Of a stretch of 64,000 nt of DNA, positions 13,429 to 42,669 are shown piece after piece; positions within the stretch are counted from its first letter, which is position 1; each line of letters starts with the position of its first letter. The notes under the pieces are model-generated. The model had not been told where the DNA came from. It saw only the letters and a list, made by a program, of their open reading frames with translations, and did not search any database. A program made the translations under genes and the position numbers. The DNA is from Betaproteobacteria bacterium (lineage in GTDB: Bacteria; Pseudomonadota; Gammaproteobacteria; Burkholderiales; SG8-41), in assembly GCA_947476215.1 (NCBI GenBank), contig CANJQI010000003.1, forward strand, positions 5,980 through 69,979, given 5' to 3'.

Positions 13429-13446
13429 TATTGGCATCCTGTTATC

Positions 13447-13478: not shown

Positions 13479-13479
13479 G

Positions 13480-15674: not shown

Positions 15675-15803
15675 AGTATCCCCACAGCGCATTTTGGAAC
15701 ACAATAACTATCGGGGATACCGTGCGTTTCCACGACACTCGCCGCGGCGCAAGAGCTCAAGAAACGAACCAGCCGAAGCATAACGATGGTAGGAGGCATG
15801 CCT

Positions 15804-19622: not shown

Positions 19623-20513
19623 CTACGAGACTCCAGGGTCGGTCCGCGCAGGAAGATGCATCAATCGCTCCCCGACCCGAATCCGCGCGCCGTCGCGAAT
19701 TCCCTCGCACAGCGCAAACCCGCGCGGTGCGAATACGATGATGGTCGAGCCGTGCTCAAACCTGCCCATCTCCTCGCCCTTCCGGAACCCGGCATTGCAG
19801 CGGATAACGTTGGGGCCGCGATAACGCAAGTTCAGCGGTGCGCCCAGAAAATTGAACTTCATGCTGGCGACCAGCACGGCCGCGACGGGCACCAGCACCA
19901 GCGGCACGCCATCGGGTTCAAGTCGGGTCAATAAGGCAGCGCGCTCGTTCTTGCAGAACAGTTTCTCGACACGCCTGAGCGCGATCGGATTGACGTTCCA
20001 GGTGTCGCCGGAAAAATAGGTCACGCGTTCGACCCGGCAATCATGCGGCGCGTGGAATCGGTGATACATGCTTGAGGTAATGCGTAGTGTCGCGTAGCAG
20101 CCTTCGCGCAGCAGTTCTATCGTCGCGGTGTCGCCCAGCAAGTCTTCCAGCGTATACGGAAAACCCTTGGCCTGAATCACGCGCGTGCCTTCTACCGGTC
20201 CGCAGGCGCCGACTATGGCGTCGCACGGGCTCGCAAGCACATCGGGGCCGGCATCGATAGGCCGCGCGCCGGCCTTCAGTTCGCGGATAAAGCAGTCGTG
20301 CAGGCTCGCAAAGCGCGATTTTTTTGCCTCATCGAGATCAAGGTCAGCAATCCGTCGCCACAGTCCGATGGACAGATCGCGCACCAGCGGTTGTTCGATG
20401 CGGCTGAACCAGCCCATGAATCTCGTCAGCGCCTGACGCGGGATACGGTTGGTAAGGAGAAAATTGACGTCCTCCTGCTGGAAGAATTGTGCCATTCGGG
20501 CGCGGACATTCAT
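19623..20513 (-). CDS. psd: Phosphatidylserine decarboxylase proenzyme (E. coli-type)
   Basis: 296-aa ORF, co-linear by eye with E. coli Psd (FNEFF-like DCFIREL, ...YHRFHAP..., self-cleavage site FEHGST). Confidence 0.8.
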   Translation of the reverse strand: MNVRARMAQFFQQEDVNFLLTNRIPRQALTRFMGWFSRIEQPLVRDLSIGLWRRIADLDLDEAKKSRFASLHDCFIRELKAGARPIDAGPDVLASPCDAIVGACGPVEGTRVIQAKGFPYTLEDLLGDTATIELLREGCYATLRITSSMYHRFHAPHDCRVERVTYFSGDTWNVNPIALRRVEKLFCKNERAALLTRLEPDGVPLVLVPVAAVLVASMKFNFLGAPLNLRYRGPNVIRCNAGFRKGEEMGRFEHGSTIIVFAPRGFALCEGIRDGARIRVGERLMHLPARTDPGVS

Positions 20514-20566
20514 ATGATTGCAAACTTTCTCAGGTAAAAGTCTCCGGAGATGACTGGAGGTTGACT

Positions 20567-22228
20567 ATGGATGAAGCCCTGATCGTGTATGCCGTGGGCG
20601 CGATGGCCACGTTGCTGGCGCTGCCGCGACTTAAAACGCGGCTCGAACTTTCGCAAGCCAAACACCGATCGCTTGCCGGACACTCGCGCATGGCGCGCCG
20701 CCTTGCAGCATTGGTACCGTTCTATGAATACAACGAGTCGCGCTTTTTCGGCTGCGACGATGCCCCTGACGAGATCGTCGAACTGCGCCGTGCGGGATTC
20801 AAGCGCCTCGCCCGCTACTACCACGAGCACTACGAAAAAACGGCGGCGCTCACTGCGCAAGCGGCACAGGGTATCTCCGACCTGCAGTTCACGAGTGCTT
20901 ACCGCGTGCCGTTCCAGTTCAGCCGCTACGTGCGCGAGCATCTGAAGGGTGGATCGTTCGTAGCCTCGTCCCAGGGCGTGACGGTGACCGATCTTGACGG
21001 CAACTGCTTTTACGATCTGACCGGATCGTATGGCGTCAACGTTTTTGGCTACGACTTTTACAAATCGTGCATAGCCGAAGGCGCGGCGCGCGTGCGCGAA
21101 CTGGGCCCCGTGCTCGGCAACTACCACCCGGTGGTGGCCGACAACGTAAGGCGATTGCGCGGGATATCGGGACTTGACGAAATTTCCTTTCACATGTCGG
21201 GCACCGAGGCAGTAATGCAGGCGGTGCGTCTGGCGCGCTATCACACGCGCCGCTCGCATCTGGTGCGCTTCTGCGGCGCCTACCACGGCTGGTGGGGCGA
21301 CGTGCAACCGGGGATAGGCAACCCGGTCCCGGCGCGTGAAACCTACACGTTGAAAGATATGGATCCCGATGCGCTGCGCGTGCTGCGCACGAGACGCGAC
21401 ATCGCGTGCGTGCTGGTCAATCCACTGCAGGCGCTGCATCCCAATGCCAACGCGCCCGGCGACTCGTCGCTCGTGGACAGTACCCGGCGTGCGCACTTCG
21501 AGCGCGAACGTTATACCGAATGGCTGAAGCAACTGCGGGCGATCTGCACCGAGCGCGGCATCGTGCTCATATTCGACGAGGTGTTTGTCGGCTTTCGCCT
21601 TGCAGCGGGTGGCGCGCAGGAATATTTCGGCGTGCGCGCCGACATGGTCACTTATGGCAAGACTCTGGGCGGTGGACTTCCGGTTGGAGTGGTGTGCGGC
21701 AAGGCGCAACTGATGAAGCGATTTCGTGAAGATCGTCCCGCCGACATCTGCTTTGCGCGCGGCACCTTCAACTCCCACCCTTACGTAATGGGCGCAATGC
21801 AGGTTTTTCTCGAACGGCTGGAAACCCCCGGGGTGCGCGCGCTCTACAGCCATCTTGATTCCCACTGGAACGGTCGAGCGCAACAGATCAATGTGCGTTT
21901 GCGCGAAGCCGGCGTGCCGGTCCAGGTCGCCAACCTGTCGTCCATCTGGAGCGTGTGCTATACGCGGCCATCGAGATACAACTGGATGCTCCAATACTAT
22001 CTGCGCGCCCACGGTCTGGCACTGAGCTGGGTCGGAACCGGGCGCCTGATATTCAGCCTGAACTATACAGATGCGGATTTTGAAGCAGTATGCGAGCGCT
22101 TTGTGGTGGCTGCGCAGGCCATGCAAGACGACGGCTGGTGGTGGTCGCATCCCGGACTGACCAACAAGTCGATCAAACGCGGCATACTGCGCGAAATGAT
22201 TGCGCGGCGCCTGGGACGGCGTATTTAG
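20567..22228 (+). CDS. Class-III (GSA-aminomutase-like) PLP aminotransferase with a ~140-aa N-terminal extension containing one TM helix
   Basis: Start at the ATG after GGAGG (20567). N-terminus LIVYAVGAMATLLALP is hydrophobic. Core DLDGNCFYDLTGSYGVNVFGY...FHMSGTEAVM...FDEVF.GFR...TYGKTLGGGLPVG holds the PLP lysine context. It is divergent from psd with only 53 bp between the starts. Confidence 0.8.
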   Translation: MDEALIVYAVGAMATLLALPRLKTRLELSQAKHRSLAGHSRMARRLAALVPFYEYNESRFFGCDDAPDEIVELRRAGFKRLARYYHEHYEKTAALTAQAAQGISDLQFTSAYRVPFQFSRYVREHLKGGSFVASSQGVTVTDLDGNCFYDLTGSYGVNVFGYDFYKSCIAEGAARVRELGPVLGNYHPVVADNVRRLRGISGLDEISFHMSGTEAVMQAVRLARYHTRRSHLVRFCGAYHGWWGDVQPGIGNPVPARETYTLKDMDPDALRVLRTRRDIACVLVNPLQALHPNANAPGDSSLVDSTRRAHFERERYTEWLKQLRAICTERGIVLIFDEVFVGFRLAAGGAQEYFGVRADMVTYGKTLGGGLPVGVVCGKAQLMKRFREDRPADICFARGTFNSHPYVMGAMQVFLERLETPGVRALYSHLDSHWNGRAQQINVRLREAGVPVQVANLSSIWSVCYTRPSRYNWMLQYYLRAHGLALSWVGTGRLIFSLNYTDADFEAVCERFVVAAQAMQDDGWWWSHPGLTNKSIKRGILREMIARRLGRRI

Positions 22229-22267
22229 CTGGGCAATCCCGCGCATGCACGGGCATGTGCTGTGAAA

Positions 22268-22873
22268 TTATGCGTGCCGCCTGTCCAGCGCAGGATCCAT
22301 CAGTTCGCCGCGTAACAGGTAATAAGGCGACTTGTAGTACAACTTCACATCGTGAAACGGATCGGTCAGTATCTTGGTCAGCCATACTAGTCCGGTGCGC
22401 GTGTCTTTCAGGTAGAACAGATGGAAGGTGCGGAACAAGAGACCGCCAATACCGATCGTCAGCCAGACTATGCCCATTTTTTGCACAAAGGTTACTCCGT
22501 CGTTGGGCACAAAAATGCCGAACAGCGTCGGGGCCAGATAAAGCACTACCGGAGAGAGCCCCCAGATGCTCAGCAGCACGATCTTGCGTTTGAGGTTATA
22601 GCCGACCTTGATCGCCTCCTTGTGTTCGTGCGTGGCATTGTTGACTTCATCGTAGCCCTTGGGTTCGAAGAAGAAGTGTCCGACCTGGCGGCTGACCATG
22701 GCTGCCAGCCAGCCGATCAGCGCGGCGGCGACGGGATTGCTGAAGATGAGTACATATGCGGTCAGAAAACTCAGGGCGCTTACGAGATGCAGCGTCTGGT
22801 TAATACGGCTGTGATGATAGTAGCGATGATCGTCCCAACGCTGAATCCTGAGCGCTTCCAGAAAACCCTTCAT
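22268..22873 (-). CDS. Mpo1-like / DUF962 family membrane protein
   Basis: Only the last 201 codons of the 667-aa track ORF are credible: the perfect SD AAAGGAG lies 6 nt before ATG 22873. Motifs YYHHSRINQTLHLVS and SRQVGHFFFEPKG match the YHxxxxNxxxH and QFxGHxxFEKRxP signatures of yeast Mpo1/DUF962. 4-5 TM helices. Confidence 0.65.
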   Translation of the reverse strand: MKGFLEALRIQRWDDHRYYHHSRINQTLHLVSALSFLTAYVLIFSNPVAAALIGWLAAMVSRQVGHFFFEPKGYDEVNNATHEHKEAIKVGYNLKRKIVLLSIWGLSPVVLYLAPTLFGIFVPNDGVTFVQKMGIVWLTIGIGGLLFRTFHLFYLKDTRTGLVWLTKILTDPFHDVKLYYKSPYYLLRGELMDPALDRRHA

Positions 22874-23023
22874 TACGTCTCCTTTACGGAAAATCGAAAA
22901 ATGTACTAGGCGCGTAATAGTGCCTGGTAATTGCTGCGTTTTGTTTACGAAGGCTTTACAGGTGCGTGACAATTGCCATGGCGCTGTCATCAAAGTTTCT
23001 TGAAAGTCTGACATGCTTGCCGT

Positions 23024-24277
23024 ATGGAAAAAGCAGTCGCCACGGACTTCGGCAACAGAGCCGGCCCAGCTCATCTCGGCAAAAAAGCGCTGCGCATTGC
23101 CTACGTGACGGAGACCTACCCCCCGGAAGTGAACGGCGTCGCGAACACCGCCGTGCGGTTTGTGGAGGGGTTGCGAGCGCGCGGTCACGCGATACAGCTC
23201 GTTCGTCCGCGACAGGACCGCGGCGACCATGCGCATAACACCACGGGTTATCGCGAAATATTGATGCCCGGAATGCCGATTCCGCGCTACCCCGACCTCA
23301 GGATGGGACTGCCGTCGACGGGAGAACTGCAGCGTCTGTGGAACACGGAGCGGCCGCACCTGGTGCACATCGTCACCGAAGGGCCGCTTGGATGGTCGGC
23401 GCTTCGCGCGGCGCTCAAACTCAAATTGCCTGTGAGTTCTGATTTCCGCACCAACTTTCATGCCTATAGCCGGCACTACGGCATAGGCTGGCTGCAAAAA
23501 CCCATTGCTGCCTACCTGCGCGGTTTTCACAATCGCACCGGATTGACACTGGTGCCAACCGAAGCCATGCGCGCAGATCTGACCCGACGTGGATTTCGCA
23601 ATCTGCGCGTGGTGGCACGCGGTGTAGACACGCAGCTGTTCGATCCGACGCGACGCAGTTTGACGCTGCGCGCGCACTGGGGCGCTGGACCCGACGACCC
23701 GGTCGTGCTGCACGTGGGCCGTCTCGCGCCAGAAAAAAATCTGGAGCCGGTTATCACCGCTTTCGAACAGGCCCGAACGGTTCATTCCCGGGCGAAGCTG
23801 GTTTTCGTCGGCGATGGCCCGGCGCGTGACAGCCTGCGCGCGCGCTGCCCAGATGCTGTTTTCGCGGGCACGCGCATCGGCGTGGATCTCGCTGAACATT
23901 ACGCGTCGGGAGATGTATTTCTGTTTTCCAGCCTGACCGAGACTTTCGGCAACGTCACGGTGGAGGCCTTGGCCAGTGGACTCGCGGTCGTCGCATACGA
24001 CTATGCGGCAGCACGCGAGCATATTGTTCATGGTCACAATGGGATGCTGGCGCGATACGACGACAGCGCCGAGTTTGCGCGTCATGCCATATCGCTGTTG
24101 CAAAACCCCGCGCGCCGCCGCGAGATAGGTCAGCGCGCCCATTTGGGCGCAGAAACGCTCGCATGGACGAACGTTGTCGAGGAGTTTGAAACTATGCTGC
24201 AGGCGGTGGCGGAATCTCCGCCGGCGCCCGCTGGCCTCTCGATAGCCGGGCTTTTTCCTGGCGCCGCACAATCCTGA
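23024..24277 (+). CDS. GT4-family (GT-B) glycosyltransferase
   Basis: LRIAYVTETYPPEVNGVANT N-terminus and C-terminal ...GDVFLFSSLTETFGNVTVEALASGLAVVA (E-X7-E region) are typical of GT4 lipid/sugar glycosyltransferases. Confidence 0.85.
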   Translation: MEKAVATDFGNRAGPAHLGKKALRIAYVTETYPPEVNGVANTAVRFVEGLRARGHAIQLVRPRQDRGDHAHNTTGYREILMPGMPIPRYPDLRMGLPSTGELQRLWNTERPHLVHIVTEGPLGWSALRAALKLKLPVSSDFRTNFHAYSRHYGIGWLQKPIAAYLRGFHNRTGLTLVPTEAMRADLTRRGFRNLRVVARGVDTQLFDPTRRSLTLRAHWGAGPDDPVVLHVGRLAPEKNLEPVITAFEQARTVHSRAKLVFVGDGPARDSLRARCPDAVFAGTRIGVDLAEHYASGDVFLFSSLTETFGNVTVEALASGLAVVAYDYAAAREHIVHGHNGMLARYDDSAEFARHAISLLQNPARRREIGQRAHLGAETLAWTNVVEEFETMLQAVAESPPAPAGLSIAGLFPGAAQS

Positions 24278-24382
24278 ATCGTTCTCGGGACGGCACTACA
24301 GCCGCTGATAGTTGCCGACTTGCTTCTGACAATCTTGAAACGGTGGTTCGCTGCAAAAAAATTGACAATGCTTTGATTTATA

Positions 24383-25588
24383 TTAGTTTTCAGGCAGGAA
24401 TCGCGAATTCGCCTTACCTCGGAATGCCTCGCCGTGAGCGGCTATGACTCGCGAGTAGATATCCGCCAGACGCCGCGCCTGCTGCGTCGCGTCCCATTCC
24501 GCTGCATACTGCATGCCTTCGATGGACAGCCTGCGTCTTTCCGACGGCGAATCGAGCAGATCGCATACTGCGTCCGCATATGTAGATTCCGAAAGCGGCG
24601 CAACGACGGCCCCCTTCCCTGCATCGAGGATGTCTATGGTGCCCATCTCGGCGATTGCGACGACCGGTACGCCGAGCGCCATTGCTTCAAGCAACACCAG
24701 ACCCTGCGTTTCGGTGCGCGAGGCGAACACAAAAACGTCGCCGGCGCGGAAACAATCAAGCAAAGTGGTGGCGCGATCCAGATAACCAACGAACCGCACG
24801 TTTGCGTCGAGTTGCAGGCGGCGCACCAGACTTTGCAGATGCGGCAGCGCCGGGCCTTCACCGGCAATCAGCAATAGCACATCGGGATGGCGGGAGCGAA
24901 CCTGGACCAGCATACGCAGCAGAAAATCGATATTCTTCTCAAACGCGACTCGTCCTACGTGTACCAGCATGGGCCTGTCCGCGGCAATTCCATGGGTGCG
25001 CCGAAACGCCGCACCGTCCCCCCCCGCGAGTTCCTTGAGCCGAATACCGGTGGGCAGTACGGTCATGGGAGAACGCACGCCGTAAGCGGTCAACGCTGCC
25101 AGCATGGCGCGTGACGGCACAACAAGCGCGTTCACCTGATTACCCTGGCGACGCGAAAATTCCCTGGCGAAACATCGCATCAGCGCGCGCGGCGCAAACG
25201 GCACATAGTGATACAGATACTCTTCAAAAAAGGTGTGATACGTGGCCACGCATGGCAACCTGAGTTCACGCGCGAGACGTAGTCCGGCATAGTGCGCCGC
25301 GAATGGCGTCTGGATGTGCACGATATCGAACTTTAGGCCGTTGAGGCGCGCCGGCAGCTCACGCAAGGCGTCACCCCGCATCAAGCGGTCTTCGGGATCA
25401 AGCGGAATGCCACGGGCACGAATGCGCAAGATACCGGCTTCATCGATACCGACCGCCTGCGGGTATTCAGGGGCAGCCACCACCACCTGATGACCGAGAT
25501 CCTGCAATTCACGGCGGAAGGTGCGTATCGAGGTGGATACCCCGTTTACGCGGGGGAAATAGACATCCGACAGGTAGAGGATCCGCAC
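24383..25588 (-). CDS. GT4-family (GT-B) glycosyltransferase
   Basis: GTG start. (M)RILYLSDVYFPRVNGVSTSI... and ...GDVFVFASRTETQGLVLLEAMALGVPVVA. The N-terminus resembles diacylglycerol glycosyltransferases. Confidence 0.85.
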   Translation of the reverse strand: MRILYLSDVYFPRVNGVSTSIRTFRRELQDLGHQVVVAAPEYPQAVGIDEAGILRIRARGIPLDPEDRLMRGDALRELPARLNGLKFDIVHIQTPFAAHYAGLRLARELRLPCVATYHTFFEEYLYHYVPFAPRALMRCFAREFSRRQGNQVNALVVPSRAMLAALTAYGVRSPMTVLPTGIRLKELAGGDGAAFRRTHGIAADRPMLVHVGRVAFEKNIDFLLRMLVQVRSRHPDVLLLIAGEGPALPHLQSLVRRLQLDANVRFVGYLDRATTLLDCFRAGDVFVFASRTETQGLVLLEAMALGVPVVAIAEMGTIDILDAGKGAVVAPLSESTYADAVCDLLDSPSERRRLSIEGMQYAAEWDATQQARRLADIYSRVIAAHGEAFRGKANSRFLPEN

Positions 25589-25711
25589 TGGGCGAGTTTC
25601 GGTTTCGTGACACCCAACCGTAACAGCGCATCGTTACAGTTTTGCGTCGGTACGGTCATTATTGTCACAAAAGTTGGCGAACAGCACCCACCATGGCAGT
25701 ATTGCAAGATC

Positions 25712-26587
25712 ATGACAGCCGACGTTTTTATCTGGTGGTTTTTCCTGTGCGCGGTGAGCGGGCTCAATATTCTGGCCTGGGCGCTCTCCGCCCAGGCGCT
25801 CGAGCGGCGCCAGGCAGCGCTGCCCGAAGCGGTTTACCGCGCACGGCGACTTCAGCTGTTCCTGTCCGCGGGATATGTCTTCGGCTGCGCGTTTCGCTCC
25901 ATCCTGCCGGTCTACGACGTGCCACGCGTATGCCTGTTCGATTCGTGGCTGTGCAGCGTCATGGTCGGGCGCTCGGTGGCCACCTTCGCCGAAGTGTGCT
26001 TTGCCGCGCAGTGGGCGCTGATGATGCGCGAAATCTCCCATGCCTCCGGGAGTTTCTTCGCCAGAATCGCCGCGCTGGCGCTGGTTCCCCTGATTATCAT
26101 TGCGGAGACTTTTTCATGGTATTCGGTGTTGACCACATCGAACCTCGGCCATGTGGTGGAGGAATCCATCTGGGGTGCGAGTGCGGCACTGGTGGTGATA
26201 AGCCTGATTGCGGTGTTGCCACGCTGCGCAGGCATGCTGCGCCGCCTGATCCTGAGCGCGTGCGCCGCCGGCACTGCCTATGTTTGTTACATGTTCCTGA
26301 TCGACGTACCCATGTACTGGTCACGGTGGGTCGCCGATGAGGCGAACCGGCGCGACTATCTGGGCATTACCCAGGGACTCGCCGATGTGTCGCAACGCTG
26401 GATTGTGTCCCACCATTGGCAGGATTGGCAGGATTGGCAGAGCGAGATTGCGTGGATGTCGCTTTATTTCAGCGTGGCAGTGTGGCTCAGCATCGCGCTC
26501 ATCTACGCACCGATACTGGAACGACGCACCGCGAGCAACCGGACATCGGTGATATTCGCCCGCGTCGCCGGGAACATGGTTCGCTGA
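25712..26587 (+). CDS. Polytopic membrane protein of unknown function (about 7-8 TM)
   Basis: Start moved to MTADVFIWWFFLCAVSG (25712), because the upstream part of the track ORF overlaps the GT gene. I recognise no family. Contains an in-frame 9-bp x3 repeat (WQDWQDWQ). Confidence 0.6.
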   Translation: MTADVFIWWFFLCAVSGLNILAWALSAQALERRQAALPEAVYRARRLQLFLSAGYVFGCAFRSILPVYDVPRVCLFDSWLCSVMVGRSVATFAEVCFAAQWALMMREISHASGSFFARIAALALVPLIIIAETFSWYSVLTTSNLGHVVEESIWGASAALVVISLIAVLPRCAGMLRRLILSACAAGTAYVCYMFLIDVPMYWSRWVADEANRRDYLGITQGLADVSQRWIVSHHWQDWQDWQSEIAWMSLYFSVAVWLSIALIYAPILERRTASNRTSVIFARVAGNMVR

Positions 26588-27773: not shown

Positions 27774-27818
27774 GCAACGCTTTCGTCGGTAACAAAAATG
27801 ACATGATGAACGACTGAT

Positions 27819-27835
27819 ATTGAAGTTTTGTGACA
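27819..27835 (-). promoter_or_regulatory. Candidate Pho box upstream of the Bug gene
   Basis: The minus strand reads TGTCACaaaacTTCAAT (half-sites 11 bp apart), then 10 nt, then CATCAT. It lies 46-62 nt upstream of ATG 27773. Confidence 0.4.
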
Positions 27836-27851
27836 ATGCCCGGGAGAGTCA

Positions 27852-28256: not shown

Positions 28257-28387
28257 ATTGTGGTTTTTCCTCATGACTTGATATCGGTTGGCTACGAGCT
28301 TGAGTGCCACTGAAGGCGCACCAACGTAACATGCGATTGTTGCGCCATGATGGCAGACGATCCGTGCCGCGGCATGGCGCGCGGAAA

Positions 28388-28432
28388 CTGTCACCAAAAT
28401 GTCACCGAAATGTCACAAACCCCGCCTAATAT
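28388..28432 (+). promoter_or_regulatory. Pho box (three tandem half-sites) plus -10 element of phoX
   Basis: CTGTCACcaaaaTGTCACcgaaaTGTCAC, with half-sites starting at 28389, 28400 and 28411 (exact 11-bp phase). A 10-nt gap follows, then TAATAT (28427-28432). The phoX ATG is at 28472. Confidence 0.8.
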
Positions 28433-30628: not shown

Positions 30629-31477
30629 CTATGACGTCTCGACGGCCAGGTTATCGATGTGCACTACGGAAGTTGGAGCAGACGTCCAGCGCACGAGCTG
30701 CATGTCGCCGTCCATGTGTTCGACGATGGCAGTGCAGCTATCCACCCAGTCACCACAGTTGATATAGGTGATGCCGTCTATCTGCTTGATCACCGGCGTG
30801 TGTATGTGACCGCATATCACCCCGTCCAGACCGCGGCGCTTCACATTGCGGACAACGGCGTTCTCGAAATCGCTGATAAAGCTGACCGCGCGCAGCACAT
30901 TACGCTTGGCATAGTCCGCGAGCGACCAGTGGCCGCTGACGCCGAGTTTGCGGCGGATCAGCGACAGTATCCGGTTCAGATGAACGAGCACGGTGTAGGA
31001 CACGTCGCCCAGAATGGAAACCCATCGATGGCAGGTCGTGACCTGATCGTACTCGTCGCCGTGCAGCAGAATGTAGCGCTTGCCGTCGGCAGCGATGTGA
31101 ATATGTTCGCGCACCACATTGATGTCGCCGAATGAGCTGTCGACGTACTCACGCAGTGCCTCATCATGGTTACCGGGTATCAGAAACACGTTCACGTGGT
31201 GGCGCGCCTTCTTGAGAATCTTCTGCACCACGGTGTTGTGCGAGGCAGGCCAGTAGACGCTGCGGCTCATTGCCCAGAAGTCGACAATGTCCCCTATCAG
31301 AAAAATATACTCGGGATCGTATTCCTTGATGAAGGACAGCAGCTGCTCGGCGCGGCAGGCACGCGATCCAAGGTGTATGTCGGAAAGGAACAGCGATCGC
31401 ACCCTGCGTACAGGAAGATCGGGGGCAATTGCAGTCTGGTCGTCCATGACTGACTGTATCGCTGACATGTCGTTCAT
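30629..31477 (-). CDS. LpxH-superfamily metallophosphoesterase, PlcP-like (candidate phosphate-starvation phospholipase C)
   Basis: 282-aa ORF with metallophosphoesterase motifs LSDIHLG, GDIVDFW, PGNHDE, LHGDEYD, GHIH. It deviates from the true LpxH context (GDLFxxWxGDD, GNRD). It has its own Pho box and sits next to dgkA and phoX. Confidence 0.65.
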   Translation of the reverse strand: MNDMSAIQSVMDDQTAIAPDLPVRRVRSLFLSDIHLGSRACRAEQLLSFIKEYDPEYIFLIGDIVDFWAMSRSVYWPASHNTVVQKILKKARHHVNVFLIPGNHDEALREYVDSSFGDINVVREHIHIAADGKRYILLHGDEYDQVTTCHRWVSILGDVSYTVLVHLNRILSLIRRKLGVSGHWSLADYAKRNVLRAVSFISDFENAVVRNVKRRGLDGVICGHIHTPVIKQIDGITYINCGDWVDSCTAIVEHMDGDMQLVRWTSAPTSVVHIDNLAVETS

Positions 31478-31598: not shown

Positions 31599-31631
31599 AT
31601 TTGATTAAGGTCGCATGACGGTTTTGTGACT
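31599..31631 (-). promoter_or_regulatory. Pho box and -10 upstream of the plcP-like gene
   Basis: The minus strand reads AGTCACaaaacCGTCAT (11-bp phase), then 10 nt, then TCAAAT. Confidence 0.55.
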
Positions 31632-32988: not shown

Positions 32989-33021
32989 TGAAACAATATT
33001 GCAATATTAGTCAGGTAGGAT
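32989..33021 (+). promoter_or_regulatory. Candidate Pho box / 14-bp palindrome and -10 upstream of pstS
   Basis: TGAAACaatatTGCAAT (11-bp phase), then 10 nt, then TAGGAT (33016-33021). It overlaps the perfect palindrome AATATTGCAATATT (32995-33008). Confidence 0.45.
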
Positions 33022-33070
33022 GCGTTCGGTCCGTCAGAATCTAATTTACTCAATGAATGGAGTGCTATTT

Positions 33071-34117
33071 ATGAATTCCCAATTTATGCAAAGACTTATC
33101 TCAGGCGCGGCGCTGGCATTAAGCCTGTCGGCCGCACCCGTTGCGTTGTCGGCCGACATCACCGGCGCCGGCGCGACTTTCCCCTACCCTCTATATGCAA
33201 AATGGGCTGAAGCCTACAAGGCAAAGGCGGGAATCGGCATTAACTATCAGTCGATCGGATCGGGGGGCGGCATCAAGCAGATTATTGCGAAAACGGTAGA
33301 TTTCGGGGCTTCGGACGCGCCGCTGGAAGCTGCGCAGCTTGAAAAAGAAGGATTGGTCCAGTTCCCCATGGTCATCGGCGGCGTGGTTCCAGTCTATAAG
33401 CTGGAGGGGATCAAGCCCGGCGAAATACGCCTGACCGGCACGGTGCTGGCCGACATCTATTTAGGCAAGATCACCAAGTGGAATGCACCTGCAATCGCCG
33501 CGCTCAACAAAGGCGTCAATCTGCCTGACCAGGACATCACGGTTGTTTCGCGTTCAGATGGATCCGGCACCACGTTTATCTTTACTAGCTACCTTTCAAA
33601 AGTCAGCGCCGAATGGAAGGACAAGGCCGGCAACAACACGTCGGTAAAATGGCCGGCTGGGGTCTCCGGCAAGGGCAACGAAGGCGTCGCGGCTTACGTT
33701 CAGCGGTTGTCAGGCTCCATCGGGTACGTCGAGTATGCGTATGCCATTCAGAACAAGATGTCGTATGTATTACTGCAGAACAAAGACGGTGCATTTGTGG
33801 GGCCGGATGACAAGACATTCAGAGCCGCGGCAGCGAATGCACAATGGGACAAAGCACCCGGCTTTTATCAAATCCTGACCGACCAGGTTGGCAAGGAAAG
33901 CTGGCCGATCACCGGCGCAACCTTTATCCTGATGCACAAGAAGCAAGACAAGCCGGCCAATGCGCAGAACGCGCTCAAATTCTTTGACTGGGCCTACGAA
34001 AGCGGCGACCAGATGGCGCTCGACCTGGACTATATTCCGATGCCAGACAGCGTAGTAAAGCTCGTTAAGGCCGAATGGAAGAAAATTCAGGACGAGTCCG
34101 GAAAGCCGGTGTTCTAG
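33071..34117 (+). CDS. pstS: Phosphate ABC transporter substrate-binding protein PstS
   Basis: Start at the ATG 8 nt after GGAG. Signal peptide, then ADITGAGATFPYPLYAKWAEAYK...GSGGGIKQI...SDGSGTTF. Confidence 0.93.
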   Translation: MNSQFMQRLISGAALALSLSAAPVALSADITGAGATFPYPLYAKWAEAYKAKAGIGINYQSIGSGGGIKQIIAKTVDFGASDAPLEAAQLEKEGLVQFPMVIGGVVPVYKLEGIKPGEIRLTGTVLADIYLGKITKWNAPAIAALNKGVNLPDQDITVVSRSDGSGTTFIFTSYLSKVSAEWKDKAGNNTSVKWPAGVSGKGNEGVAAYVQRLSGSIGYVEYAYAIQNKMSYVLLQNKDGAFVGPDDKTFRAAAANAQWDKAPGFYQILTDQVGKESWPITGATFILMHKKQDKPANAQNALKFFDWAYESGDQMALDLDYIPMPDSVVKLVKAEWKKIQDESGKPVF

Positions 34118-34144
34118 CGTATTGCTTTTCCAGACTCAACGCTC

Positions 34145-34172
34145 TCGCGAGGGGCCTTTTCGGGCTCCTCGC
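34145..34172 (+). terminator. GC-rich hairpin between pstS and pstC (likely partial terminator/attenuator)
   Basis: cgcgaggggcc-tttt-cgggctcctcgcg lies 28 nt after the pstS stop. Only a weak T tract follows. Confidence 0.4.
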
Positions 34173-34189
34173 GCCTTTCAGGGGATGCC

Positions 34190-35209
34190 ATGTCTACAAC
34201 TGAAGCAGCGCTGAACGCACCGCAAATGCTGAAGGTTGCGCAACAATCAACTTATAATCAGGAACCGAAGCCGACAACGAGGCGAGCCTGGATGGACACG
34301 CTATTCAAAAACCTGACGCGTTTTTTCGCATTCTTCGTATTAGCGATACTGGTCGCCATTTTACTGTCGCTGGTTTATCACAGCCAGCTTACACTGAGTA
34401 AATTTGGTTTCGGTTTCCTGTTTGTAGATGAATGGGACCCCGTTAAAGAGGAGTTCGGCGCATTGGTTCCGATTTACGGAACGCTCGTCAGCTCCGCCAT
34501 CGCCATGATCATCGGCATACCGGTGAGCTTCGGTATTGCCCTGTTTCTGACAGAATTGTCGCCGAACTGGCTTAAGCGCCCGCTCGGCACGGCAATCGAA
34601 ATGCTGGCGGCGATTCCGAGCATCATCTACGGCATGTGGGGACTGTTTGTTTTTGCCCCGCTATTTGCGGACTACGTCCAGCCCGCACTGATCAAGACCT
34701 TTGGCGCGTTGCCTATATTCGGGATGTTGTTCAAGGGCCCCGCGATGGGCATAGGTATGTTGACCGCAGGCATCATACTGGCGATCATGGTCATACCCTT
34801 TATCACGGCCATCATGCGCGACGTGTTCGAACTGGTGCCCCCCATGCTCAAGGAGTCCGCATACGGCCTCGGCGCCACAACCTGGGAAGTGGCGTGGAAA
34901 ATCGTGCTGCCGTACACCAAGATCGGCGTGGTGGGGGGCATCATGCTGGGGTTGGGACGCGCGCTCGGCGAAACCATGGCTGTAACCTTTGTCATCGGTA
35001 ATGCGCATCGCCTGAGCACCTCGTTGCTCGCGCCCGGCAACAGCATTGCATCGTCTCTGTCCAACGAGTTTACGGAAGCGGTTGGCGACCTTCATTCATC
35101 GGCGTTGATCGAACTGGGCCTGATCCTGTTCCTGATCACCACCATCGTGCTTGCGCTGTCGAAACTGCTGCTGCAGCAACTAGCAAAACAGGAAGGCCGG
35201 AAAACGTAG
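34190..35209 (+). CDS. pstC: Phosphate ABC transporter permease PstC
   Basis: 339-aa polytopic ORF with the EAA-type loop ([14 protein letters not shown]). Confidence 0.9.
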
Positions 35210-35268
35210 CGTACAAAGCCAGATGAAGCACGAGTGCTTCATCTGGTGCCGCACACATAGGATCATTC

Positions 35269-36108
35269 ATGGTAAATGCAATTTACATACGCAGGCGCAG
35301 ACTGAACAAGCTCATGCTGCTGATTTCCGGCGCGACCATTGTGTTCGGCCTGTTCTGGCTGACGTGGATACTGGCCACACTTCTATATCAGGGATTCGTC
35401 GCTCTGCGCCCGTCGCTGTTTACCCAGATGACCCCCCCGCCGGGCAGCGACGGCGGACTGCTTAACGCCATTGCCGGCAGCTTCATGATGGCCGCCACCG
35501 GCACGATCATCGGCACTCCTGTCGGCATACTGGCCGGCACCTATCTGGCCGAATTCGGCCGTCGCGGCTGGCTGGCGCCGGCAACCCGTTTTATCAACGA
35601 CATTCTGCTCTCCGCGCCGTCCATTGTTATCGGCCTGTTGGTGTACTCGGTCTATGTGTCGCAGGTCAAGCATTTTTCCGGTTGGGGCGGGGCGCTGGCA
35701 TTGGCGCTGATTGTGATTCCGGTGGTGGTGAGAACCACCGACGACATGCTCAAGCTGGTGCCCGACAGTCTGCGTGAAGCGGCGTTTGCTCTCGGCGCGC
35801 CATACTGGAAAATGATAGTGTTCGTGTCCTATCCCGCGGCCAAGGCCGGCATGATTACCGGCATACTGCTTGCGGTGGCGCGCATCAGCGGCGAAACCGC
35901 ACCGCTGCTCTTCACGTCTCTTAACAATCAATTTTGGTCCACCGACATGAACGCGCCGATGGCCAATCTTCCCGTCGTCATTTTCCAGTTCGCGATGAGC
36001 CCCTACGAAGACTGGCAACGATTGGCGTGGGGCGGCGCGATATTGATTACGTTCGGTGTGCTGGCGCTGAATATCGCAGCGCGTCTGGTCAGCCGCGGCA
36101 AGAACTAG
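35269..36108 (+). CDS. pstA: Phosphate ABC transporter permease PstA
   Basis: 279-aa polytopic ORF ([15 protein letters not shown]). Confidence 0.9.
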
Positions 36109-36131
36109 GAAGCAAAACAGGAATATCCGAT

Positions 36132-36920
36132 ATGAACGAAGAATTGAACGAAGAATTGCATATGGCGTCGCCGAAACTCAAGATCAACAGCCTGAATTTT
36201 TACTATGGCGGATTTCAAGCGATCAAGAATGTGTCCATGGATATTCCGGCAGGTCAGGTAACCGCATTCATCGGTCCATCGGGTTGCGGAAAATCGACTT
36301 TATTGCGTACCTTCAACCGCCTGTACGAGCTATATCCTGGGCAGCGCGCCGAGGGCGAGATACTGCTCGATGGAAACGATATCCTTGATGAAAAACAGGA
36401 TCTTACGCTACTGCGCGCCAAGGTCGGCATGGTCTTTCAGAAGCCGACGCCGTTCCCGATGTCGATCTACGACAACATTGCTTTCGGCGTGCGCCTTTAC
36501 GAAAACCTCAACCGTCATGACATGGACGATCGTGTTGAATGGGCGCTGACCAAGGCCGCGCTCTGGAAAGAGGCCAGGGACAAGCTCAATCAAAACGGCA
36601 ACAGCCTGTCCGGCGGCCAGCAACAGCGCTTGTGCATTGCGCGCGGCATCGCGATCAAACCGGAAGTATTACTGCTCGACGAGCCCTGTTCCGCGCTCGA
36701 TCCGATTTCAACTGCCCGAATTGAAGAGCTGATCCATGAATTGAAGGCCGACTATACGGTTGTAATCGTCACGCATAACATGCAGCAGGCGGCCCGCGTT
36801 TCGGATTTCACCGCCTATATGTACCTGGGAGAGATGATCGAATTTGGCGCGACCGACAAGATTTTCACGACGCCAAAACAGAAAGCAACCGAAGACTACA
36901 TCACCGGCAAGTTCGGCTGA
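36132..36920 (+). CDS. pstB: Phosphate ABC transporter ATP-binding protein PstB
   Basis: Walker [10 protein letters not shown], signature LSGGQQQRL, Walker B LLLDEP. The N-terminus holds a 12-bp tandem duplication (NEELNEEL). An alternative start is at 36162. Confidence 0.92.
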
Positions 36921-36948
36921 TCCGATAACCGCTGGCAGGAGAAGAACT

Positions 36949-37671
36949 ATGCAGAATGATCACACCTCGTCGCAGTTTGACACCGAAATGGAAACCCTGC
37001 GCAGCAGCGTGCTGAACATGGGCGGACTGGTCGAGCGCCAGTTGCAGCGCGCCCTGGACGCGGTCAAGGGCGGGGACTCCGCACCGGCAAATCTGGTAAT
37101 GACAGATGAGCAACTGGTAAACGAAATGCAGATGAATATCGACAAATTGTGCGCTGAAGTGATCGCGCGCCGGCAGCCTGCCGCAGGCGATCTGCGCACG
37201 GTTATTGCGGTCGGTCAAACGGTCAATGATCTTGAGCGCATGGGCGACGAAGCAAAGAAAATTGCGCGCAAGGCGACGGAGATCTATGGTGAAGGCGCCA
37301 GTACACGTGATCGCAGGAACTCACTGGTGCATTATTCCGAGATCGGCCACATCGGGCAGCTTGCACAATCCATGCTGCAGATGGCCCTCGACGCATATGC
37401 GCGCAAGGATCTGGTCGTGGCCGCCGAAGTCGTCACGCGGGACAAGCAAGTCGACAGCGAATTCCAGGCCGTCATGCGCCAGCTTATCAGCTACATGATG
37501 GAGGACCCGCGCACCATTTCCTCCGTGCTTGACGTTATTTTTGTCGCCAAGTCATTGGAGCGCATCGGAGACCACGCAAAAAATATCGCCGAATACGTGG
37601 TGCAGGTTGTCAAAGGCAAGGACATGCGGCACGCCACCGCCGAGGAAATTCAGCGCGAAGCCGCGAGCTGA
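36949..37671 (+). CDS. phoU: Phosphate signalling complex protein PhoU
   Basis: Start at the ATG after AGGAGAAG. Two PhoU repeats are present (DLERMGDEA, SLERIGDHAKNIAE). Confidence 0.92.
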   Translation: MQNDHTSSQFDTEMETLRSSVLNMGGLVERQLQRALDAVKGGDSAPANLVMTDEQLVNEMQMNIDKLCAEVIARRQPAAGDLRTVIAVGQTVNDLERMGDEAKKIARKATEIYGEGASTRDRRNSLVHYSEIGHIGQLAQSMLQMALDAYARKDLVVAAEVVTRDKQVDSEFQAVMRQLISYMMEDPRTISSVLDVIFVAKSLERIGDHAKNIAEYVVQVVKGKDMRHATAEEIQREAAS

Positions 37672-39023
37672 AGCTGATGTTCAGGTGGTGGAACAACAGC
37701 CACCATACGCGTCGCCGGAAATTTCAGGGTAAAGCGGCTTCCGCGTCCAGGCTCGCTGTCGATATTGAGTGTCGCGTCATGACGCAATAACACGTGCCTG
37801 ACAATGGCCAGCCCCAGCCCGGTGCCGCCCGTCGCGCGCGATCGACTGCGATCAACACGATAAAAGCGTTCGGTCAGCCTCGGAATGTGTTCTGCGGGTA
37901 TTCCGATCCCACTGTCCTCAACGCTGAACAGGCCTGCGCCATCGGTCATCTGCCAGCGTATTCCGACCTTGCCGCCCTGCGCGGTGTAGCGAATGGCGTT
38001 GCTGATCAAATTGCCGAATGCACTGCGCAACTCGATCTCCGAACCGAGTATTGCCCCCGGAGCCTGCACTTCAAGCTGAATATCGTGCCTCCCGCCGCTC
38101 AGCGACTGCGCATCACGAAGCAGTGCATTCATGAGCGGCGCGATCGCCACCGGCTCCCCGGCCACGCTGTTACTTTCATTCTCGAGCGCCGAGAGCACAA
38201 GCAGGTCTTCCACCAGACGCTGCATGTTATGCGCCTGCTCGGCCATTAGAGAGAGATAGCGCTCCAATTGCTGCGGCGCCGGACCGGTGGTCTGTATTGT
38301 TTCTATGAATCCGGATATCACCGTCAATGGCGTCTTGATTTCATGGGAAACATTGGCCACGAAATCGCGGCGCACGGTGGCCACACGCTCGAACTCCGTG
38401 ACATCTTGCCCGATAAGCAATTTCTCCTGATCGCCGTAAGGGATCAACTGCACGGATATCAGCAGTCCGCCGCCGCGATCCGACTTGAGCAGCAGTGCTT
38501 GTCCCGATCGGTCCGCGGCCAGATACGCGGCAAATTCGGGCTGGCGAATCAGGTTAAAAACCAGAGCCCCCTTGTCGCGCTCCCCGTCGAGCCCGAAATA
38601 CGTTTGCCCTGCTGCGTTACACCATTCGATATGATGTCCGGCGTCCAGCATTACGACGGCATCCGGCATCGCCTCCCCTGCATTTCGAAAGCGCTGCAAC
38701 GCTTCGGCAAGCGAGCGCCGCTCGCGGGACAGTTCCCGCGAAAACCGATGCAGTGCCGCAAAAACGGTTTCCCACACACCGCGGCCCGACGGAATCGGTG
38801 TTTCGACCGGCGACTGCACCCAGCGCTTCAAGGCCCGCAAATTCTGCACATGGAGCGCAACCATGCCCGCAAGACCGCAGGCAGCGATGCCGAGCCCCCA
38901 CACCGCCCCCGCCACAGCGCCTGCCACGAGCGCCGCCAAACCCAGCATTGCGCACGCGGTCAGTGTTCGTCTGAGTATCGAATCCACTCGATTATTTTGC
39001 ACTAATCCGATAGCCGCTGCCAC
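37650..39023 (-). CDS. phoR: Phosphate regulon sensor histidine kinase PhoR
   Basis: Two N-terminal TM helices, PAS, H-box SHEIKTPLTV, HATPase DSGIGIP...GGTGLGLAI. The start is uncertain (ATG 39023 overlaps phoB; GTG 38987 is an alternative). The 3' end overlaps the convergent phoU by 22 nt. Confidence 0.9.
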   Translation of the reverse strand: MAAAIGLVQNNRVDSILRRTLTACAMLGLAALVAGAVAGAVWGLGIAACGLAGMVALHVQNLRALKRWVQSPVETPIPSGRGVWETVFAALHRFSRELSRERRSLAEALQRFRNAGEAMPDAVVMLDAGHHIEWCNAAGQTYFGLDGERDKGALVFNLIRQPEFAAYLAADRSGQALLLKSDRGGGLLISVQLIPYGDQEKLLIGQDVTEFERVATVRRDFVANVSHEIKTPLTVISGFIETIQTTGPAPQQLERYLSLMAEQAHNMQRLVEDLLVLSALENESNSVAGEPVAIAPLMNALLRDAQSLSGGRHDIQLEVQAPGAILGSEIELRSAFGNLISNAIRYTAQGGKVGIRWQMTDGAGLFSVEDSGIGIPAEHIPRLTERFYRVDRSRSRATGGTGLGLAIVRHVLLRHDATLNIDSEPGRGSRFTLKFPATRMVAVVPPPEHQLQLAASR

Positions 39024-42635: not shown

Positions 42636-42669
42636 GCTTTCTCCATTCCTCCCGTTCATTCAAACGCTC

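Follow-up and report, generated by a model that had tools for sequence, protein, structure and literature searches.

Three genes in the stretch analysed here, encoding a Psd-family pyruvoyl decarboxylase, a membrane-anchored class III aminotransferase (AT) and a small Mpo1-like membrane protein, occur together in several bacterial phyla. We grade this triad, which usually lies beside a lipid family 4 glycosyltransferase (GT4) and Pho boxes, as probably an undescribed head-group pathway of phosphate starvation because of the co-location of the triad, its usual lipid glycosyltransferase neighbour and the Pho boxes. A literature search found no paper on the psd/AT/Mpo1-like module.

A conserved three-gene core

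The window is a 64,000-nucleotide stretch of a contig assigned to a Betaproteobacteria bacterium, in which an ORF check located all six genes of the region 19623–26587 where the initial annotation had placed them, with the same exact divergent spacers of 53 bp (psd/AT, read from the sequence as 20514..20566), 150 bp (Mpo1-like/GT4a) and 123 bp (GT4b/polytopic gene). The arrangement is beyond chance because gene order is kept across phyla. The unit is nevertheless smaller than the six genes in three pairs first proposed, since GT4b is present only in close relatives and the polytopic protein occurs mostly without the triad; the core consists of the psd-like, AT and Mpo1-like genes.

The psd-like gene (19623..20513, minus strand) encodes a 296-aa proenzyme that matches the Pfam profile PF02666 with 175.7 bits, TIGR00163 with 160 bits (cut-off 111.75) and E. 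coli Psd with 108 bits. All catalytic motifs of Psd are found in it, including the Asp (SPCDAIV) and His (YHRFH) that align with those of the E. coli enzyme and the HGST cleavage motif. We infer that the cluster gene is probably a dedicated paralogue and not the housekeeping psd.

The AT gene (20567..22228, plus strand; 553 aa) has a GGAGG ribosome-binding site ahead of its ATG and encodes a single N-terminal hydrophobic helix (residues 4–21; 20576–20629), a basic stretch and a PLP-dependent catalytic domain, in that order. The class III fold (PF00202, 108.8 bits), the resemblance to GSA-aminomutase and the transmembrane helix all stand as originally described. An identity with HemL is ruled out by a score of 170 bits, far under the cut-off of 527. 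Among solved structures, the beta-ketoacyl aminotransferase domain of mycosubtilin synthase MycA is closest (6kfm, E 4e-49); residues 84–505 of AT align to it, the PLP lysine motif TYGKTLGGG included, and 23 homologues all keep Lys365. Because similarity to a solved domain begins at residue 84, the truly extra N-terminal part is ∼85 aa and not the ∼140 aa first proposed. The MycA domain works on a long-chain beta-ketoacyl thioester, and this, taken with the membrane anchor, favours a lipid substrate for AT as well.

The third core gene (22268..22873, minus strand) encodes a histidine-rich integral membrane protein of 201 aa with ∼4 transmembrane helices. Its assignment to Mpo1/DUF962 is borne out as a distant likeness and not as family membership, with PF06127 matched over only part of its length and at 21.6 bits, short of the gathering score of 24. 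Only 786 clusters at 50% identity match it among 1.84 billion representatives. Its invariant residues include D14, D15, H16, H20, H29, H66, E70, D75, E86 and D175, and proteins that read as fusions of the PmtA-like methyltransferase (see below) with the Mpo1-like protein were found. The AF2 model (pLDDT 71) has no fold match in the PDB. It would probably act as an Mpo1-type oxygenase that depends on a metal.

AT is carried by at least 599 species or genome loci, and the neighbourhood counts given here rest on the best 80 of these, which span Alpha-, Beta- and Gammaproteobacteria, Myxococcota and Acidobacteriota. Among them, psd is present in 73 of the 73 loci with sufficient upstream sequence, divergent and adjacent in 70, mostly with a shared spacer of ∼66 bp; the Mpo1-like gene is present in all 74 loci with sufficient downstream sequence. 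In three Burkholderiaceae loci the order is Mpo1-AT-psd, with all three genes in one collinear operon. In Myxococcota, GT4, psd, AT, Mpo1-like and polytopic protein genes are tightly packed, as are GT4, psd, AT and Mpo1 in Holophagales. The proposal that these genes are functionally linked in the chemistry of membrane-lipid head groups thus gains support from the co-location of the triad and from its lipid-type partners. Many loci have PlcP-like homologues close to the triad, and the alphaproteobacterial clusters add a phospholipid N-methyltransferase, whose best match is the Legionella-type PmtA (146 bits; next family 73 bits), and a flippase-like protein that matches the N-terminal region of MprF with 186 bits. 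In the betaproteobacterial loci of this sample the flippase-like protein is missing. The neighbourhoods of the examined loci share no conserved enzyme that would attach a head group.

Glycosyltransferases and the polytopic protein

Both GT4 proteins of the region carry the Glyco_transf_4 and Glycos_transf_1 domains. GT4a (23024..24277, plus strand), a GT-B enzyme of 417 aa, is the triad-associated glycosyltransferase of Betaproteobacteria, where its orthologues (44–73% identity) adjoin the Mpo1-like gene. Its top NCBIfam match is the GlcNAc-PG synthase GpgS, of which it is not an orthologue because it scores 129 bits against a cut-off of 480; it is a probable lipid (DAG or glycerolipid) glycosyltransferase. 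GT4b (24383..25588, minus strand; 401 aa) is of the Agt type, with alpha-monoglucosyl-DAG synthase as its top NCBIfam match (133 bits, cut-off 400). It lies outside the conserved core and has orthologues in few loci only, one of which, in Dechloromonas (54% identity), is directly downstream of a PlcP-like gene. GT4b is likely to be the Agt-type partner of PlcP. In Methylosinus, MGDG is still made by a plcP-agt mutant, and bacteria of this kind are therefore expected to have another, as yet unidentified, DAG glycosyltransferase (PMC9239053).

A GT4 gene lies within 5 kb of the triad in 40 of 48 loci. Three GT4 orthogroups take this neighbouring position, each in different lineages, which favours functional coupling over shared ancestry. 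Identity across phyla is 60–80% for the triad proteins, whereas the neighbouring GT4s share only ∼30–35% between orthogroups, and the glycosyltransferase may thus be a module of its own, linked to the triad by common regulation only.

The breadth of the GT4 family, together with the fact that every GT4 match is far under its equivalog cut-off, leaves some room for a different acceptor. The GT4s would then decorate the LPS core, EPS or another non-lipid acceptor under phosphate stress, with the triad as an unrelated neighbour or as the maker of an aminated glycan precursor. Pho-regulated glycosylation of LPS exists in E. coli, where it is carried out by WaaH. We consider such a role very improbable: the GT4s are matched best by lipid glycosyltransferases (GlcNAc-PG synthase and alpha-MGlcDAG synthase) and not by LPS, EPS or glycogen enzymes, they are partnered by Psd and by PmtA-like and MprF-flippase-like proteins, with PlcP-like genes as frequent neighbours, and no polysaccharide export or polymerase genes are conserved near the triad in the examined loci.

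The likeness of GT4a to GpgS bears on another possibility, namely a cationic glycolipid made by an amino-sugar route. Here the product of GT4 would be a hexosyl-diacylglycerol or, as with GpgS, a hexosyl-glycerophospholipid; the oxygenase would oxidise a sugar hydroxyl and AT would aminate it in the manner of the C-6' aminotransferases of aminoglycoside pathways, which are among the solved relatives of AT. Aminosugar lipids are made by gpgSDF and hexSDF, in which a GT4 is likewise paired with a UPF0104/MprF-type flippase (PMC12713373). The difficulty lies with psd, which would take no step on the glycolipid and would only supply PE or balance PS and PE in parallel, so that the strictest association of the cluster, that of psd with AT, is given no role. 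The PmtA-like methyltransferase in turn suggests an amine of the ethanolamine type, and we regard the amino-sugar route as rather improbable.

The polytopic membrane protein (25712..26587, plus strand; 291 aa, 8 predicted helices) has no Pfam or NCBIfam match. Its start at 25712 fits the homologues, which are 272–295 aa long and align from residue 1; the gene caller places the start at 25607. It has more than 5,900 homologues, of which those with a name are called hypothetical protein and none carries a precomputed Pfam domain. Its AF2 model (pLDDT 82.7) has no significant match in the PDB. The gene directly adjoins triad genes in several phyla, but the triad is absent from 31 of 41 polytopic-protein loci of at least 6 kb (flanks up to 10 kb on each side). 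Upstream Pho-like sites occur in 16 of 71 loci, where ∼2 would be expected, and the protein appears to be an optional, separately Pho-regulated accessory of the triad.

Probable phosphate control of the cluster

The suspected response of the cluster to phosphate is supported by the positional enrichment of Pho boxes in many lineages and by a Pho island in the window itself. The Pho-box-like site TGTCACGCACCTGTAAA (22955..22971, minus strand) is present as first noted, co-oriented with the Mpo1-like gene and 82–98 nt ahead of its start codon. Two mismatches make this site weak when taken alone, and chance would yield 4.45 like it in the window; at 16.0 bits it is the fifth-best weight-matrix match on both window strands. 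The site is, however, kept in orthologous loci: 30 of 78 together have 42 Pho-like sites ahead of the Mpo1-like gene, where ∼2.5 sites would be expected. That only 30 of the 78 have one at the threshold used counts against a Pho-controlled pathway. Two tandem half-site pairs 11 bp apart (22974..23001, plus strand; 11.5 and 11.8 bits) point towards GT4a, and their function is uncertain because they lie merely 23 nt from its annotated ATG. A weight-matrix scan found no Pho-like site in the psd/AT spacer of the window; ten other loci have a plus-oriented site 21–104 nt upstream of AT. Across loci, the peaks of Pho-like sites lie ahead of the Mpo1-like gene, ahead of AT and in the GT4/flippase spacer.

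The Pho island of the window includes a triple perfect Pho box (28389..28416, plus strand) upstream of phoX (28472–30394; PF05787). It also holds a PlcP-like metallophosphoesterase gene (30629..31477, minus strand; PF00149 53.6 bits, weak LpxH-like matches), by which the weight matrix finds a weak tandem Pho-like pair (31604–31631), and the diacylglycerol kinase gene dagK (∼31652–32020, minus strand; PF01219 109.8 bits), whose Pho box at 32060–32076 has one mismatch and the top weight-matrix score in the window. Within 33020..39678 are pstS, pstC, pstA, (pstB) and phoU on the plus strand and phoR and phoB on the minus strand (Pfam: PBP_like_2, BPD_transp_1 twice, PhoU, PhoR+HisKA+HATPase and Response_reg+Trans_reg_C).

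Pho boxes on the cluster, with phoX, the PlcP-like gene and dagK close by, would also suit a catabolic salvage of phosphorus, in which the triad dismantles aminophospholipids and builds no new lipid. Psd would convert the remaining phosphatidylserine to phosphatidylethanolamine (PE), which in alphaproteobacteria the PmtA-like enzyme would push on to phosphatidylcholine (PC), a substrate of PlcP. AT would remove or transform the ethanolamine amine, either by transaminating PE or by phospho-lyase action on the phosphoethanolamine that PlcP sets free; the oxygenase would clear the aldehyde or 2-hydroxy product, and the freed diacylglycerol would pass to the neighbouring GT4 and become glycolipid. 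Class III aminotransferases act on terminal amines more commonly than they synthesise alpha-amino acids, deamination of such amines is typical of them, and the animal phosphoethanolamine phospho-lyase shares their fold. It also fits salvage that a genuine Psd yields PE, that the cluster is without a conserved head-group-attaching enzyme and that the triad evolves independently of GT4. We still judge salvage unlikely. AT is nearest to the MycA domain and GSA aminomutase and not to known phospho-lyases, a soluble substrate would need no membrane anchor, and the flippase-like protein of alphaproteobacteria is easier explained by biosynthesis and export of a lipid. Moreover, PlcP alone already degrades PE and PC in the bacteria in which this has been studied.

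A candidate lipid-building pathway

The reading to which we lean, at a little short of an even chance, is a PhoB-controlled lipid-remodelling island in which the triad builds an amine-bearing, phosphorus-free lipid. What follows on its substrates, its product and the sequence of its steps is what we infer. Amine-bearing head groups of lipids would be the target of the triad, on the cytoplasmic side of the inner membrane. The nearby PlcP-like enzyme would release diacylglycerol, on which GT4a would first build a glycolipid free of phosphorus; the membrane oxygenase would then oxidise a carbinol or 2-hydroxy-acid of the head group to a carbonyl, and the aminotransferase would convert this carbonyl to an amine. 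The Psd paralogue would finally remove an alpha-carboxylate, leaving an ethanolamine-like terminus. None of the enzymes in the conserved set is known to add a 2-hydroxy-acid or serine-like group to a glycolipid, so that the Psd paralogue is left with no explained substrate, which counts against the lipid-building reading. The preference of class III aminotransferases for terminal amines and the sub-threshold Mpo1 match of the presumed oxygenase count against it as well.

In alphaproteobacteria, which make PC as well, the PmtA-like enzyme would methylate the amine and the MprF-type flippase-like protein would move the lipid outward. The product of the pathway may thus be a glyco- and amino-modified lipid, as originally suspected, and its ethanolamine-like head group would make it a phosphorus-free stand-in for PE.

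A three-gene module kept together across phyla

The initial annotation had read six consecutive genes, arranged as three divergent pairs, as one phosphate-responsive pathway for a membrane-lipid head group. All six open reading frames were found as described, as were the divergent spacers of 53, 150 and 123 bp. They encode a psd-like protein (19623-20513, minus strand), a membrane-anchored class III aminotransferase (AT; 20567-22228, plus strand, its ATG preceded by GGAGG), a small Mpo1-like membrane protein (22268-22873, minus strand), two family 4 glycosyltransferases, GT4a (23024-24277, plus strand) and GT4b (24383-25588, minus strand), and an orphan polytopic membrane protein (25712-26587, plus strand). 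The family assignments hold for psd, the class III AT and the two GT4 enzymes, but the Mpo1/DUF962 assignment is sub-threshold (PF06127, 21.6 bits versus a gathering score of 24, covering model positions 11-66 of 95). A 667-aa antisense frame (22268-24271, minus strand) that is joined to the Mpo1-like frame was rejected as a shadow ORF of GT4a, a GC-rich gene with a GC3 of 0.68; because the open frame continues upstream of the Mpo1-like gene, automatic annotation could place that start wrongly. Rfam gave no match within the window, and scans of the window for sigma-70 promoters and terminators gave no excess over shuffles.

Some metagenome contigs carry identical copies of the AT in an unchanged gene order, after which come TctC, PhoX, a metallophosphoesterase and DAG kinase. 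The closest AT homologues carry the labels Burkholderiales or Betaproteobacteria. The window has three TctC/Bug periplasmic receptors (26754-27836, 39836-40828 and 41667-42659); several such receptors close together are typical of Burkholderiales, in agreement with these labels.

An alignment of AT homologues against one genome per species gave at least 599 matching stretches, and we examined the neighbourhoods of the best 80 loci by tblastn with the window proteins and by de novo ORF clustering. The titles of these 80 loci name Beta-, Alpha- and Gammaproteobacteria (Steroidobacteraceae), Polyangia/Myxococcales and Holophagales, and Bradyrhizobium, Dechloromonas, Aquincola and Polynucleobacter are cultured carriers among them. 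A psd gene is present in all 73 loci that extend at least 1.1 kb upstream of the AT (divergent-adjacent in 70), and a Mpo1-like gene in all 74 that extend at least 0.9 kb downstream (convergent-adjacent in 66). The conservation of gene neighbourhood that had been proposed as a check is thus borne out for psd, AT and the Mpo1-like gene, which form an obligatorily linked three-gene module. The six-gene unit does not survive in full, because GT4b and the polytopic protein lie outside this core. A GT4 of some kind is found no more than 5 kb away in 40 of the 48 loci having 5 kb on both sides.

Three Burkholderiaceae loci carry a collinear Mpo1-AT-psd operon. In Myxococcota, the GT4, psd, AT, Mpo1-like and polytopic genes are packed without intervening genes, as are the GT4, psd, AT and Mpo1-like genes of the Holophagales locus. 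A methyltransferase gene adjoins the Mpo1-like gene in 33 loci, mostly labelled alphaproteobacterial, and the standard alphaproteobacterial order places it between the Mpo1-like gene and the GT4. The best NCBIfam match of this enzyme is the Legionella-type phospholipid N-methyltransferase PmtA (146 bits; next family 73 bits). A gene matching the flippase half of MprF (186 bits) lies divergent from the GT4 in 20 of these 33 loci; the 215-aa ORFs seen repeatedly in alphaproteobacterial loci are its shadow ORFs.

The sole carrier in the plasmid collection is a Sphingomonas replicon with the order psd / AT / hypothetical / methyltransferase. This record (S. parapaucimobilis, NZ_CP155753; L085 of our loci) also holds lptFG and, about 1.2 kb beyond the cluster at 13344-15722, a 383-aa 'N-acetyltransferase' and a fatty acid desaturase; although entered as a plasmid, it looks like a chromid or a piece of chromosome. 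Two metagenome-assembled genomes titled 'Chitinophaga pinensis' (L007) and 'Bordetella parapertussis' (L075) carry loci 74-81% identical to the betaproteobacterial cluster of the window, and their species labels therefore look unreliable.

Probable phosphate control of the cluster

The strongest Pho boxes of the window lie upstream of phoX (three perfect TGTCAC repeats with 11-bp spacing, 28389-28416) and upstream of dagK (one mismatch, 32060-32076). They are followed by pstS (33020-34117), pstC (34190-35209), pstA (35269-36108), a gap expected to hold pstB, phoU (36844-37671) and, on the minus strand, phoR (37650-39023) and phoB (38992-39678). Judged by its predicted genes, 33020-39678 is a complete core Pho locus, and the cluster lies within a putative Pho island of roughly 20 kb. 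Pho control of a DAG kinase is unexpected for a phosphorus-saving cell. A possibly truncated gene, a short ORF divergent from phoX (27852-28397, minus strand), overlaps the phoX Pho boxes; its match is confined to the catalytic domain of D-2-hydroxyacid dehydrogenases (PF00389, 29.5 bits). Another Pho-like site with one mismatch (44596-44612) is inside coding sequence, in a region (43030-47113, minus strand) encoding a fatty-acid beta-oxidation pair: a 594-aa acyl-CoA dehydrogenase and a 760-aa protein in which 3-hydroxyacyl-CoA dehydrogenase and enoyl-CoA hydratase are fused.

The Pho-box-like site noted earlier between the Mpo1-like and GT4a genes (22955-22971, minus strand) has two mismatches and is not significant alone, although it is the fifth-best weight-matrix match in the window. 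Its position gains weight from the 80 loci, where we counted sites with no more than two mismatches against a background of 0.106 per kb. A sharp peak lies upstream of the Mpo1-like gene, with 42 sites in 30 of 78 loci versus about 2.5 expected, the loci being related and not independent trials. Nearly all of these sites are in the orientation of the gene and 40-135 nt from its start codon, and their sequences differ between loci while the position is kept. Two smaller peaks lie upstream of the AT (10 loci) and, with 22 sites, in the spacer between GT4 and flippase gene in alphaproteobacteria. The triad thus appears to stand behind conserved Pho boxes and is a candidate member of the Pho regulon. 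Two other candidates were rejected. The TGTAAC/TGTTAC/TGTCAC repeats in the spacer between GT4b and the polytopic gene are spaced at 13 bp instead of 11 and reach no more than 9.6 bits. In 12 alphaproteobacterial loci a response regulator lies close to the cluster, but it is not PhoB, its best match being KdpE and below all cut-offs.

The encoded proteins

The AT is a class III aminotransferase (PF00202, 108.8 bits, cut-off 30.5). Its Lys365 is shared by all 23 homologues compared, and the surrounding motif TYGKTLGGG lines up with the PLP-lysine motif TYGKIIGGG of MycA. The family is generally annotated as glutamate-1-semialdehyde aminomutase, a label contradicted by its failure to reach the HemL equivalog cut-offs (TIGR00713, 170.5 versus 527.3 bits; NF000818, 176.7 versus 398 bits); 'GSA-aminomutase-type' is, by these scores, a resemblance only. 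The best solved relative is the aminotransferase domain of mycosubtilin synthase MycA, not HemL (E 4e-49, residues 84-505; 35% identical over about 420 residues). Because this similarity begins at residue 84, the unique N-terminal part amounts to about 85 residues and not the ~140 first proposed; the single transmembrane helix predicted within it stands. That helix (residues 4-21) is followed by a strongly basic stretch, and by the positive-inside rule the catalytic domain would therefore face the cytoplasm. The MycA domain aminates the carbonyl of a long-chain beta-ketoacyl thioester. The AT shares the class III fold and PLP-lysine motif with this domain of the mycosubtilin/iturin synthases and with HemL, but it is free-standing, outside any PKS/NRPS, and carries at its N-terminus the helix and a conserved basic segment of about 60 aa.

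The psd-like protein passes the cut-offs of both PF02666 (175.7 bits, cut-off 22) and TIGR00163 (160.2 bits, cut-off 111.75). Its alignment to E. coli Psd scores 108 bits and takes in the motifs 'SPCDAIV' (Asp) and 'YHRFHAP' (His), and it has the G-S-T motif of self-cleavage in 'EHGSTIIVF' near the C-terminus (HGST site). With these scores and the catalytic Asp/His/Ser (GST) motifs, the protein is a true member of the Psd family. We infer that the cluster psd is a paralogue and not the housekeeping gene because it stays with the AT from one phylum to another (54-82% identity), because its place beside the AT is kept while other flanking genes change, and because some of its carriers are taxa expected to rely on a short-type Psd for housekeeping. 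Bradyrhizobium and Burkholderiaceae are presumably such taxa, and the cluster psd would then be a second copy. It follows that a psd annotated in a carrier genome need not be the housekeeping gene.

Yeast Mpo1 is a 2-hydroxy fatty acid dioxygenase (PF06127/DUF962). Like it, the Mpo1-like protein is a small multi-pass membrane protein, of about four helices, with conserved His and acidic residues. The invariant positions (D14, D15, H16, H20, H29, H66, E70, D75, E86 and D175) fit a putative metal site. The two differ in that the link to PF06127 is weak and partial, with all members tested at 17-22 bits and below the threshold; among six divergent full-length relatives, two scored 16.9 and 17.6 bits and four gave no match. 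The AF2 model (pLDDT 71) matched nothing among solved structures. The relatives form a compact separate subfamily of 786 clusters, and an 85%-identical homologue is named 'DUF962 domain-containing' in one database record. In two database proteins, P0370 (420 aa) and P0481 (456 aa), a Methyltransf_11 domain is joined to the Mpo1-like domain; these may be real fusions or read-through calls of adjacent genes.

Both glycosyltransferases score above the cut-offs of Glyco_transf_4 (GT4a 91.3 bits, GT4b 114.2 bits) and Glycos_transf_1 (99.9 and 114.1 bits). The GT4s found beside the triad fall into three orthogroups in different lineages: a betaproteobacterial one that includes GT4a; one in Alpha- and Gammaproteobacteria, Myxococcota and Holophagales that is 31-35% identical to GT4a; and an Agt-like one that includes GT4b. 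Since several orthogroups occupy the same position, we read the recruitment of different GT4s to it as evidence of functional coupling. Among the loci examined, GT4b orthologues occur only in close relatives and in L042 and L075; in L042, from Dechloromonas, the orthologue lies immediately downstream of a PlcP-like metallophosphoesterase gene. Several loci have a PlcP-like gene close to their GT4a orthologue, and in the window GT4b is 5 kb from such a gene.

The polytopic protein gave no family match even at E = 5. Its AF2 model is an eight-helix bundle (pLDDT 82.7) with no significant match among solved structures, only generic seven-helix bundles at E of 0.28 or above, and the idea of a divergent MprF-type flippase was rejected at a profile-profile probability of 0.07%. 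The family has more than 5,900 homologues, none with a precomputed Pfam domain and all named ones 'hypothetical protein'; its invariant charged residues include H147, E150, E151, D198 and D209. Among the loci from a reverse scan of metagenome contigs, 41 were at least 6 kb long; the triad accompanied the polytopic gene in about 10 of these, and away from the triad no conserved neighbour was found in the reverse-scan loci. A Pho-like site lies upstream of the polytopic gene in 16 of 71 loci versus about 2 expected, two of them perfect, and such sites occur even where the triad is absent. The protein looks like an uncharacterised membrane protein of the Pho regulon in its own right.

Possible chemistry of the module and its known analogues

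The triad is embedded among membrane-lipid head-group enzymes and stands behind conserved Pho boxes. In the reading that we tentatively prefer, at a little under even chances and with its chemistry inferred, a glycolipid would be built on PlcP-derived diacylglycerol, and oxidation, transamination and decarboxylation would then leave it with an ethanolamine-like head group. Methylation of this group might follow in PC-producing bacteria, an idea that fits the PmtA-like enzyme of (mostly) alphaproteobacterial clusters, which also carry the flippase-like partner. The weak point of this biosynthetic reading is that we know of no conserved cluster enzyme that explains the attachment of a serine-like or 2-hydroxy-acid group to a lipid. 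Its most specific form is rather doubtful: that the triad makes an undescribed class of phosphorus-free, amine-bearing lipid on glycosyl-diacylglycerol, an ethanolamine-type surrogate of PE, N-methylated to a choline-type lipid in alphaproteobacteria, with the AT and the Psd paralogue acting on a non-phospholipid head group primed by a Mpo1-type oxygenase.

The canonical PssA-Psd-PmtA route to PE and PC resembles the cluster in having a true Psd and, in alphaproteobacteria, a PmtA-like N-methyltransferase alongside. It differs in that the cluster has no PS synthase, in that psd is tied here to an aminotransferase, and in that this psd has Pho boxes, which are not expected for housekeeping PE synthesis. 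The same enzymes could also form a catabolic funnel for phosphorus salvage, converting PS to PE (and on to PC) for PlcP while the PLP enzyme strips the amine; we consider this unlikely.

PlcP-Agt remodelling, which occurs in SAR11, roseobacters, Agrobacterium, Pseudomonas aeruginosa and Methylosinus, replaces phospholipids when phosphate is scarce. The window shares with it a probable control by the Pho regulon, a PlcP-like metallophosphoesterase (30629-31477) and a GT4 that is a candidate DAG glycosyltransferase. However, PlcP-Agt is without the Psd paralogue, the aminotransferase and the Mpo1-like protein, and here GT4b stands at a distance from the PlcP-like gene, while the triad is tied to another GT4, GT4a. 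The Dechloromonas locus, by comparison, has its GT4b orthologue immediately downstream of the PlcP-like gene, as in the classical plcP-agt arrangement (PMC9239053).

A second analogue comprises GpgSDF, for GlcN-phosphatidylglycerol in P. aeruginosa, and HexSDF of C. difficile, in which a GT4 glycosylating a membrane lipid, together with a UPF0104/MprF-type flippase, yields an amine-bearing lipid (PMC12713373). An amino-sugar glycolipid route resembling gpgSDF (PMC12713373) would agree with GpgS as the best NCBIfam match of GT4a and with the pairing of a GT4 and a MprF-like protein in alphaproteobacterial clusters. However, neither GT4a (129 bits) nor GT4b (111.6 bits) reaches the cut-off of 480 for the GpgS equivalog NF053787, and GT4a is not a GpgS orthologue; there is no deacetylase here, and the window has an unrelated orphan membrane protein at the flippase position. 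Any amine here would come instead from oxidation and transamination, and we think the amino-sugar route quite improbable. ArnA/ArnB, which convert UDP-GlcA to UDP-Ara4N, offer a mechanistic analogy only: oxidation, decarboxylation and transamination make a cationic amino sugar for envelope lipids out of a sugar acid, but by an SDR and a DegT-type aminotransferase rather than a Mpo1-like protein, a pyruvoyl decarboxylase and a class III aminotransferase, and on nucleotide sugars rather than membrane-bound intermediates. Decoration of LPS or EPS by the GT4 enzymes, set beside a triad embedded among lipid head-group genes, is the least probable account, and we give it very little credence.

For bacteria of soils, fresh waters and the sea, replacing phospholipids under phosphate scarcity is a major adaptation, and to our knowledge only a few routes to it have been described: PlcP-Agt glycolipids, DGTS, ornithine lipids and sulfolipids. 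The locus appears to be part of known Pho-regulated lipid remodelling, with what is probably an ordinary PlcP/Agt component. Our literature search found no paper on the psd/AT/Mpo1-like gene set, only the analogues Methylosinus plcP-agt and gpgSDF, and the module is outside any described pathway found there. It is strongly conserved and widespread, in at least 599 species of five phyla or classes, and includes types of enzyme that have so far been tied to no lipid pathway. Because several carriers are cultured, the question is directly testable. The module offers the first testable context for the DUF962-like subfamily, the membrane-anchored aminotransferase family and the orphan membrane family with its thousands of members. 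If true, the biosynthetic reading would mean new lipid enzymology and a pathway shared by at least 599 bacterial species from soil and freshwater.
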